This document shows, piece after piece, positions 61,201 to 64,000 of a stretch of 64,000 bases of DNA. The stretch comes from Escherichia coli. GTDB taxonomy: Bacteria; Pseudomonadota; Gammaproteobacteria; Enterobacterales; Enterobacteriaceae. The stretch lies in the NCBI RefSeq assembly GCF_041886205.1, contig NZ_CP169029.1, one strand, 5' to 3'. A program made the position numbers. Numbering within the stretch: the stretch's first letter is position 1; each line of letters opens with the position of its first letter.

Positions 61201-64000
61201 GCTTTTTTGGTCACAATCACCGTACAGTCGGTGATATTGCCTGCCCCCTGATTGCCTTTCTGGAAAATCTTAAACTCCAGAGTGACGCTTCCCCTGCCAC
61301 TCGGCATATCAATAACTGCACTGTAACTACCGGGAATGGCCCCTTTAGTTTCTCTGGATGCGATTAATACGCCGTTTTTGCGAACTTCAAAACCATAACC
61401 CGTGTATCGCGTGCCTCCTGGGTTATTTCCGCTCCCCGGATCGTCATACGCTATACCGTTAAAAATAATGGGCGGAATAATAATCTGGCGGTCAAAGTTA
61501 TGATCATCGCTGATGGTGACTGTAACCGTACCGTTTGGTGTTTCCGTGTTACCCCACGTACCGACTTTTTTCGGGAAGGCTTTTGATACAGCTTTAACGA
61601 AATCTCCTCTGACCTGGGTCGCCTCCAGCATGCCCTTAATCGTACAGTTCTGGTTAATCGTGACATTGTTGAGCGTTCCTGAGTTCGCATTCACACTGCC
61701 ACTGATATCCGCATTTTTCGCCGTCAGTCTCCCGTCTGATGTCAGGGAAAATGCCGGAGGATTACCGCCGCTGGTAATGGTGGGGGCCGTCAGGCGTTTC
61801 AGGAACACTTCATTCATGAATATCTGATCGCCCTGACCAACAAACATCGGCTTTGTGTTGCCATTCGCAGGATTAATCATCGCAATCCTGTCTGCTGCCA
61901 GCAGCACCTGACTCTGCATGCCGTCAGGGGTGTTCTCAATACCGGCACCGATACCCGCAATATAAAGGCGTCCGTCCTGCATCTGCTGCAGCTTCACTGC
62001 CCACATGCTGTTCAGGTTATTATTTGTATCAACCTGAACCTTCTGTATCTGCTGGATCGCTGCACTCTGGTCTTCCAGTTTCTTATTGACGGTCTGTGTT
62101 ATTTCATTGCTGACATCCGTTATGGACATCCTGATTTCAGTCAGGTCAGGCGCAAGCTGACCGTTATCAATCTGCGTCCACAGCTCCTGAGCCAGATGGG
62201 TTTTCCCTATCTCGCCTTTGAAAAAATCCAGATAGCCTGATGCATCATCACTCGGCTGACCGACAGCCTCCACGAATGCCGATTTGCCAACGGTGTTCAC
62301 ACTGCGAACGTAAAAATAATAATCATGGCCCGGTTTGATATTGATACTGGCGGCTATCCAGTACAGTGCCGTACCAAGATAACGCGCGCTGGTTTCAACC
62401 TGCCTGATATCCGCAATCCGTTTTTCCGAGAACCAGAACTCAAACTGTACCGTCGGGTCATAAACCGCAAGATGCGGCGTGGCGGTTATCTGAAAATAGC
62501 CCGGCGTCAGCTCAATCCGCGACGGCGCTGCCGGTGCGGCAATCCGGAACGATACCGACGCCGGATCGCCCTGCTGCCCCCACGCATTTACTGCCCGGAC
62601 TGTCAGCCTGTAGTTCCCCAGAGCCAGTTGTGTGAAGCGGTAAGTGGTTTCCGTCGTCCGGGCCGTGCTGACCAGCCGCTCACGGCCGTCATCCGCTGCC
62701 ACGGTCAGGCGAAGCAGGAAGCTCACGCCCTTCACCACCTTCGGCGTGTCCCAGCGCGCCAGCACCTGGTATTCCCCGCTGTCTGCGGTGACTTCTGCGG
62801 TCAGGTGCTGCACCGCTGGCGGCGTGACACCATTTACCGTGCCGCTCTGGTCGCCGTCAAAGTGCGCCCCGTTATCCACGATGGCCTCTTTTTCCGGTAC
62901 ATGCTGCACGGCGGTGATGGCATACGTGCCGTCATCGTTCTCACGGATACTCACGCAGCGGAACAGGCGCTGGCGCAGCGTCGGCAGCTTCAGCCCCCAC
63001 ACGCTGTATTCTGCAACGCCGTCAGGAACACGGCTCACTTTCACCTTCACGCCGTCGGTGACGGACTGGACCTCCACGCTGACCGGATTACCCTGACCGT
63101 CAACCAGGCTTATCAGCGTGGTACCGGAGGATGGCAGCGTGATTTCACGGTCGAGCGTCAGCGTCCGGGTCTGGCTGTTCACCGCCAGCACGCGCCCGCC
63201 GGTGCTGATGCCCGCATAGTCATCATCGCAGATTTCAATGACATCCCCCGGTACATGGCGAAGCCCTTCCGCACCCACGCTGAAGTCCACGGTCTGCGTT
63301 TCCAGCAGTTCCGTTTTAATCAGCCACAGCCCGGCGCGGTGCACCTGCCCCCGGCTGGTACAGCCAAAGGCATCCATCTTCGTGACGTTACGACCGTATC
63401 CGTTGTCTGTGTACGGGGAGTTCTGGCTTTCGGTGCCAGCATCTGCGCCACACCACCGAGCACCATACTGGCACCGAGAGAAAACAGGATGCCGGTCATA
63501 CCACCGGTCCCAATGGCTGCCCCCCATGCTGCAAGGGTGGCTCCGGCGGTAAAGAATGATCCGGCAATGGCGGCAGCCCCCAGGACAATCTGGAATACGC
63601 CACCTGACTTGGCCCCGGCGACTCTGGGAACAATATGAATCACAGCGCCATCAGGCAGAGTCTCATGTAACTGCGCCGTTAACCCGGACGTGCTGACGTC
63701 CCGCCCGGCAATCCGTACCTGATACCAGCCGTCGCTCAGTTTCTGACGAAACGCCGGGAGCTGTGTGGCCCGTGCCCGGATGGCTTCAGCCCCCGTTTTC
63801 ACACGAAGGTCGATGCGGCGACCAAATCGTTGTAAATCCCCGTAAAGGCAGATGCGCGCCATGCCCGGTGACGCCAGAGGGAGTGTGTGCGTCGCTGCCA
63901 TTTGTCGGTGTACCTCTCTCGTTTGCTCAGTTGTTCAGGAATATGGTGCAGCAGCTCGCCGTCGCCGCAGTAAATTGCGGCGTGATTCGGCACTGATGAA

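Follow-up and report, generated by a model that had tools for sequence, protein, structure and literature searches.

Bacteriophage lambda (NC_001416/J02459) carries its tail assembly gene I (14773–15444) and its tip attachment/host specificity gene J (15505–18903) in a right arm with the gene order K-I-J-lom-stf-tfa. Textbook examples of prophage decay by deletion are provided by DLP12, Rac and Qin of Escherichia coli K-12: mosaic remnants, from which structural genes are missing and in which tail-fibre and lom genes are truncated. A further described arrangement is that of dgcX, a gene located at attB beside lambdoid prophage DNA in O104:H4, EAEC and ETEC strains (PMC4287979).

The window analysed here, a stretch of 64,000 nucleotides from E. 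coli (GCF_041886205.1, contig NZ_CP169029.1), is identical to the chromosome of E. coli wlxctx60 (NZ_AP045833; Japanese black bear faeces). A literature search for the strain name wlxctx60 returned nothing. The final kilobases of the window contain a right arm in which the genes follow the same order as in lambda, and in which gene I runs directly into the interior of gene J. We interpret this I-J site as the scar of one spontaneous, 1,504 bp deletion, generated by illegitimate recombination in a decaying lambdoid prophage at att-lambda of wlxctx60, and put the probability of this interpretation at roughly 0.9.

The minus strand of window positions 61000–64000 was aligned to lambda and to the closest phage, phiSTEC1575-Stx2k (OQ243220; 99.2% identity overall). 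The alignment consists of two collinear pieces: the first (64000–63393) corresponds to K and I, at 99.2–99.7% identity, and the second, running from 63398 downward, to the interior of J (99.1% identical to phiSTEC1575-Stx2k, and 93.4% to lambda). Against lambda, and against closer intact relatives, exactly one break is seen at I-J, and nothing has been inserted there; the flanks of the junction are 99.1–99.7% identical to the same intact relatives. An initial annotation of this DNA had placed an I-J deletion junction at 63380–63410, and proposed alignment to lambda as the means of checking it. The alignment does place a homology break within this interval, with intact-I homology ending at 63397 and intact-J homology beginning at 63398 (minus strand). 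On the I side, the alignment to lambda and phiSTEC1575-Stx2k is ungapped through ...CAGACAACGGATA, the last base of which is window position 63397, and on the J side it starts with TACGGTCGTAAC..., the first base of which is window position 63398. Read base by base and without gaps, the I side extends up to ...ACGGATA (63397) and the J side from TACGGTCGT... (63398). The junction string quoted in the initial annotation, ggatACGGTcgtaac, is exactly what the minus strand reads (...CAGACAACGGATACGGTCGTAACGTCACG...). Every base of the junction is explained by either I or J parental sequence; the two are joined directly, without filler DNA.

Compared with both lambda and phiSTEC1575-Stx2k, 1,504 bp are absent from the window. 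The missing segment is equivalent to lambda 15278–16781, and spans (i) the last 55 codons of I, (ii) the I-J intergenic region, and (iii) the first 425 codons of J. Since 1,504 is 3 × 501 + 1 (i.e., 3n+1), the I frame enters the J DNA out of frame, as had been proposed, and continues for 25 wrong-frame codons before reaching a stop at 63320. The breakpoint, the size and frame of the deletion, and the two parental sequences are all read directly from these alignments.

The deletion leaves behind a truncated copy of each gene. The I remnant (I'; 63397–63901, minus strand) consists of the first 168 codons plus one nucleotide (the first base of codon 169) of 223, acceptably close to the "about 170" intact codons initially estimated. 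Its open frame (63901–63320) encodes 193 aa, made up of 168 aa of I followed by the 25 out-of-frame codons of J DNA. I' differs from phiSTEC1575 I at a single nucleotide and from lambda I at 4 of 505 nucleotides (165 of 168 aa identical), and matches the Pfam family Lambda_tail_I (PF06805; E = 7.1e-28, 97.3 bits against a cut-off of 23.8, profile positions 2–83 of 83, aa 14–97). The Lambda_tail_I domain is thus whole in I'. As the full-length 223 codons are not retained, I' is a pseudogene with a family match, rather than a functional member of the family.

The J remnant ('J, or J'; 61176–63398, minus strand) consists of codons 426–1165, plus stop codon, of the phiSTEC1575-type gene; full-length J is 1,165 aa in the phiSTEC1575 type and 1,132 aa in lambda. 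Homology to J picks up again with the first base of codon 426, in the numbering of both lambda and phiSTEC1575 J, and not at around codon 490 as originally estimated (approximately 64 codons off). The start codon and N-terminal 425 codons are missing, and the sequence immediately upstream is I DNA in another frame. The match to the Pfam domain Phage-tail_3 starts at profile position 90 of 164; Ig_J, Ig_J_second, Phage_Tail_Tip and Ig_GpJ_C (the C-terminal receptor-binding domain) are complete. A mechanically called ORF of 783 aa (63527–61176) covers J', with an ATG start that lies in an alternative frame of I; this ORF should not be annotated as a gene. The PGAP/RefSeq annotation labels the two remnants "tail assembly protein, missing C-terminus" and "TipJ family protein, missing N-terminus", both as incomplete pseudogenes. 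The earlier description of a fused, non-functional I-J ORF is therefore right in that both genes are disabled and are joined out of frame, and wrong in that merely 25 wrong-frame codons follow I, such that no I-J fusion protein is encoded. The core of the initial reading (a deletion, at a very short homology, that connects I with internal J sequence and disables both genes) finds support in the sequence comparison.

The contiguous I-J junction occurs in one of 5,426 complete E. coli genomes, and is known from a single assembly. Searches of both the IMG/VR viral contigs and the JGI metagenome contigs with a 23-mer covering the junction (ACAGACAACGGATACGGTCGTAA) gave no match. The rarity of the junction is a direct count and, being unique among the 5,426 complete genomes, the junction can serve as a lineage marker for the strain. 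The K-I-J-lom-stf-tfa-diguanylate cyclase arm is shared by approximately 198 complete E. coli genomes, in which it extends over ~10.5 kb, compared with 5.7 kb here, indicating that the I-J and lom-stf segments are present in those ~198 genomes. The closest of these is CH425 (NZ_CM166358), in which the prophage beside ybhB/bioA has complete sets of head and tail genes. Comparison of the window with CH425 reveals three breaks: (i) inside K, (ii) at I-J, and (iii) at lom-stf. The J gene of CH425 (19832–23330 of the extracted CH425 segment) carries a 1-nt frameshift, labelled "frameshifted" by PGAP, which may be genuine or result from a sequencing error; measured against CH425, the deleted interval is 1,505 bp.

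Ten two-piece matches in poultry strains were considered as candidate carriers of the I-J deletion; the one inspected, E. coli E2 (NZ_CP104509), proved to be a different, independent event. In E2, another lambdoid prophage carries an H-L deletion of 680 bp with a 2-bp TA overlap (1600–1602 of the extracted segment), together with a J-internal deletion of 960 bp with an HSP overlap of up to 5 bp (3604–3608 of the extracted segment); gene I is intact. The other nine of these matches, in poultry and other strains, are two-piece I/J matches similar to that of E2.

The remaining two breaks relative to CH425 lie on either side of the I-J region. The 3' end of tail gene K (C40 peptidase) occupies window positions 63799–64000 (minus strand; an ORF ending at 63799, identified by alignment to lambda K and phiSTEC1575) and runs past the end of the window. 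The break inside K is located just beyond this point, at window-equivalent ~64077 (K nt ~466), and it is only there that CH425 homology begins. The head genes and most of the tail genes have been lost: all of the former, and tail genes A-L, are absent. The region upstream of the break (window-equivalent ~64077–65359) contains Rac-like trkG and ynaK'. Also upstream of the break is a 258-aa ORF, labelled "GREB1-related protein" by PGAP, that is apparently foreign sequence fused to the K C-terminus.

On the other side of J', a remnant of lom (lom'; Ail/Lom outer-membrane protein; 60891–61105, minus strand) retains 71 codons and a further 2 nt from the start of the gene, as judged by Pfam (Ail_Lom positions 1–74 of 199) and by alignment to CH425. 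It is joined at 60891–60895 to a remnant of the side tail fibre gene ('stf; 60337–60895, minus strand), in which the C-terminal ~185 codons and a Phage_fiber repeat remain of a gene that measures 3,399 bp in CH425. The deletion between lom codon 72 and these C-terminal stf codons removed 3,297 bp, and a 5-bp sequence, TATGC, is present at both parental sites. PGAP records lom as frameshifted/incomplete and the tail of stf as a hypothetical protein missing its N-terminus. The neighbouring tail fibre assembly gene tfa (59753–60337, minus strand) is intact and encodes a 194-aa protein, WP_000885606.1 both here and in CH425.

Between tfa and attR lies a cargo gene on the plus strand (58348–59679). 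It is AT-rich, and encodes a 443-aa diguanylate cyclase with Pfam MASE4 and GGDEF domains (PGAP: "sensor domain-containing diguanylate cyclase"); its position at attB-lambda and its domain architecture match those of the dgcX type. The 15-bp lambda att core, GCTTTTTTATACTAA, has one exact match at 57693–57707 (minus strand), where none is expected by chance. Lying between the diguanylate cyclase gene and ybhB/bioA, this core is taken to be the attR end. The annotated order across the prophage is ybhC-int-xis ... tfa-diguanylate cyclase-ybhB-bioA. Genes for terminase, portal, capsid and tail tube, all of which are present in CH425, are missing from the annotation between the lysis genes and K'. 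The O gene is partial, and another gene is frameshifted. The early and lysis regions, outside the window and upstream of the K fragment, contain emrE, ybcN, ninE, ybcO, rusA, ylcG, quuD, an ompC/nmpC-like porin, essD, rrrD and rzpD. We take the DLP12 names of these genes to denote a DLP12-like module residing at att-lambda, not at argU, as an example of lambdoid mosaicism. Given its site, the presence of int/xis and an att core, and the loss of virion-essential genes, the element is a defective (cryptic) lambdoid prophage at att-lambda.

The prophage annotation also includes, elsewhere in the element, a partial recombinase gene, and IS elements and invertases are common in lambdoid right arms. 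Both observations are in keeping with an I-J junction made by a mobile element or site-specific system, for example by an IS-mediated adjacent deletion, or by integrase or invertase error. However, I joins J without any IS end, target duplication or inserted bases, neither of the two parental sites resembles the att core, and no IS or recombination site was found at lambda-equivalent position 15277 or 16780 among the surveyed J places. The chance that such a system produced the junction seems to us negligible.

The junction could, alternatively, be an artefact of assembly or sequencing, in which 1.5 kb that exist in the real chromosome were collapsed in the assembly. Such an artefact would account for a junction that a single assembly among 5,426 complete genomes shows, and that is absent from the viral and metagenome contigs searched; moreover, a second place in the strain matches the right arm, and could in principle confuse an assembler. 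The parental sites, however, contain no repeat longer than 6 bp that could bring about a collapse, which makes an artefact unlikely. Further points against it are the other clean deletions in the same element, the comparable scars in unrelated assemblies, and the status of the record as a closed, complete chromosome. Overall, we consider an artefact very improbable, and a real deletion the preferred explanation.

The J remnant holds some information about the age of this deletion. All 740 remaining J codons are open, with no stop and no indel relative to the relatives. At 21 positions the window differs from both phiSTEC1575 and CH425, and 20 of these private positions fall within J codons 435–580 (62934–63369, ~440 bp); the codon differences between J' and phiSTEC1575 amount to 16 synonymous and 4 nonsynonymous. 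The cluster of substitutions at codons 435–580 is suggestive of a small stretch acquired by recombination with a different J allele. Differences that are clustered and mostly synonymous point to an allelic segment that was inherited and predates the deletion, rather than to decay following it, and so the deletion is probably recent. The open J' codons would fit a recent deletion, without proving neutrality.

The same observations might instead reflect retention of J' by selection, either as a donor of host-range modules to incoming lambdoid phages or for the sake of an expressed product. The 2.2 kb of J' are free of stops and indels, synonymous changes outnumber nonsynonymous ones (16 vs 4) among its differences from relatives, all of the C-terminal J domains are complete, and defective prophages are known to donate tail genes to infecting phages. 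Taken further, J' would not be inert: it would act as a recombination reservoir for the receptor-binding C-terminus, or be expressed, and small deletions in I-J and H-L would be a favoured means of disarming the tail while keeping the fibre, the receptor-binding modules and the dgcX-type cargo. Against this, the synonymous bias is concentrated in codons 435–580, and is best read as an inherited, pre-deletion allele. J' possesses neither a start codon nor a ribosome-binding context of its own (the sole ATG frame being that which starts in the alternative I frame), and a junction that is private to one genome gives no sign of the truncated form being conserved. Finally, a recent deletion accounts equally well for the open frame. 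Retention by selection is thus doubtful in the extreme, and the wider idea of favoured tail disarming has a similarly slim chance of being correct. We return to the preferred reading, a spontaneous deletion, and to the sequences at its ends.

The initial annotation attributed the I-J junction to an ACGG microhomology. The sequence ACGGT is indeed present at both parental sites; it is, however, one base out of register (TAACGGT in I, TTACGGT in J). The parental sites read GGATA/ACGGTAAG (I) and CCCGTTA/CGGTCGT (J), such that the bases shared in exact register are TA alone (63397–63398), which can be assigned to either parent. A longer sequence, TACGGT (6 bp; 63393–63398), is common to both parents only if one A of the I copy (TAACGGT) is bulged out; the BLAST HSPs overlap at 63398–63393. 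When compared base by base with the two parental sites of lambda, phiSTEC1575 and CH425, the deletion junction is delimited to 63393–63398. A simple, in-register crossover inside ACGGT was considered and rejected: it predicts GGATAACGGTCGT, which contains one A more than the observed GGATACGGTCGT. The match was kept as a bulged quasi-homology.

The extent to which homology of this kind arises by chance was gauged with 200,000 random endpoint pairs from the same region. An ungapped overlap of at least 2 bp was obtained for 16% of random pairs (P = 0.16), and a total of at least 6 bp with one single-base bulge for 1.1% (P = 0.011), the latter statistic having been defined after seeing the junction. 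The 2 bp in register are hence no more than expected by chance, and any role of microhomology depends on the 6-bp reading with a bulge, a reading selected post hoc. With this in mind, the TACGGT quasi-homology probably helped the deletion. A parental J allele with CGA-TAC, which would provide a 4-bp in-register repeat (GATA), was also considered and rejected: an engineered 97-mer had no perfect match among 8,357 J places in 4,289 complete E. coli genomes. The best matches to the 97-mer contained one mismatch and, in the match inspected, the mismatch was the engineered base. No J allele with a longer in-register repeat was found among the 8,357 J places.

Both the molecular mechanism (slippage/template switch or end joining) and the neutrality of the event are inferred. 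The two ends would have been joined directly through RecA-independent illegitimate recombination, by either replication slippage (template switching) or end joining. A very short homology may have acted as a guide: TA in register, to which the neighbouring CGGT probably lent stability through the bulging of one A in the I copy (TA[A]CGGT vs TACGGT). The predicted products are an I protein of 168 aa with a 25-aa nonsense tail, and a J gene that lacks its promoter-proximal start and N-terminal hub region; neither truncated I nor truncated J would be expected to join tail-tip assembly. The I-J event is one of at least three deletions in the right arm and, since the head genes and most of the tail genes have also been lost, it is probably a case of neutral decay in a dead or dying element.

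The I-J scar is ordinary prophage decay, a process that is well known, and both genes are already flagged as pseudogenes in RefSeq. The novelty of the junction is limited to its being private to a single strain, which is trivial. With its breakpoints precisely mapped, the scar documents a single step of deletional decay in an att-lambda prophage carrying a dgcX-type gene, and matters little beyond annotation. It also adds a data point to the junction spectrum (2–6 bp homologies) of spontaneous deletions that erode prophages.

Comparison with the known systems places the element as follows. Relative to lambda, the 5' part of J' is 93% identical to lambda J; from approximately codon 830 the gene diverges (76% identity or no match), and follows the 1,165-aa type of phiSTEC1575/ev243. 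Phage phiSTEC1575-Stx2k and the CH425 prophage are 99.1–99.7% identical to the window over both flanks of the junction, but have an intact I and a full-length I-J interval. CH425 additionally shares the tfa protein, the diguanylate cyclase cargo gene and the ybhB/bioA flank and, unlike the element described here, has intact lom, stf, head and tail genes. Like DLP12, Rac and Qin, the element is a mosaic remnant that lacks structural genes and has truncated tail-fibre and lom genes; its annotation even includes DLP12-like (emrE, ybcN, rusA, quuD, nmpC/ompC, essD, rrrD) and Rac-like (trkG, ynaK) gene names. It differs from them in being located at att-lambda (not at argU or ttcA), and in having kept a K'-I'-'J block. 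The junction itself resembles those of short-homology illegitimate recombination in E. coli, in that the ends are joined directly, with no insert, few shared bases and one copy kept. Classical slippage deletions usually occur between clean direct repeats of at least 4 bp, whereas here there are 2 bp in register, and the longer match needs a one-base bulge.
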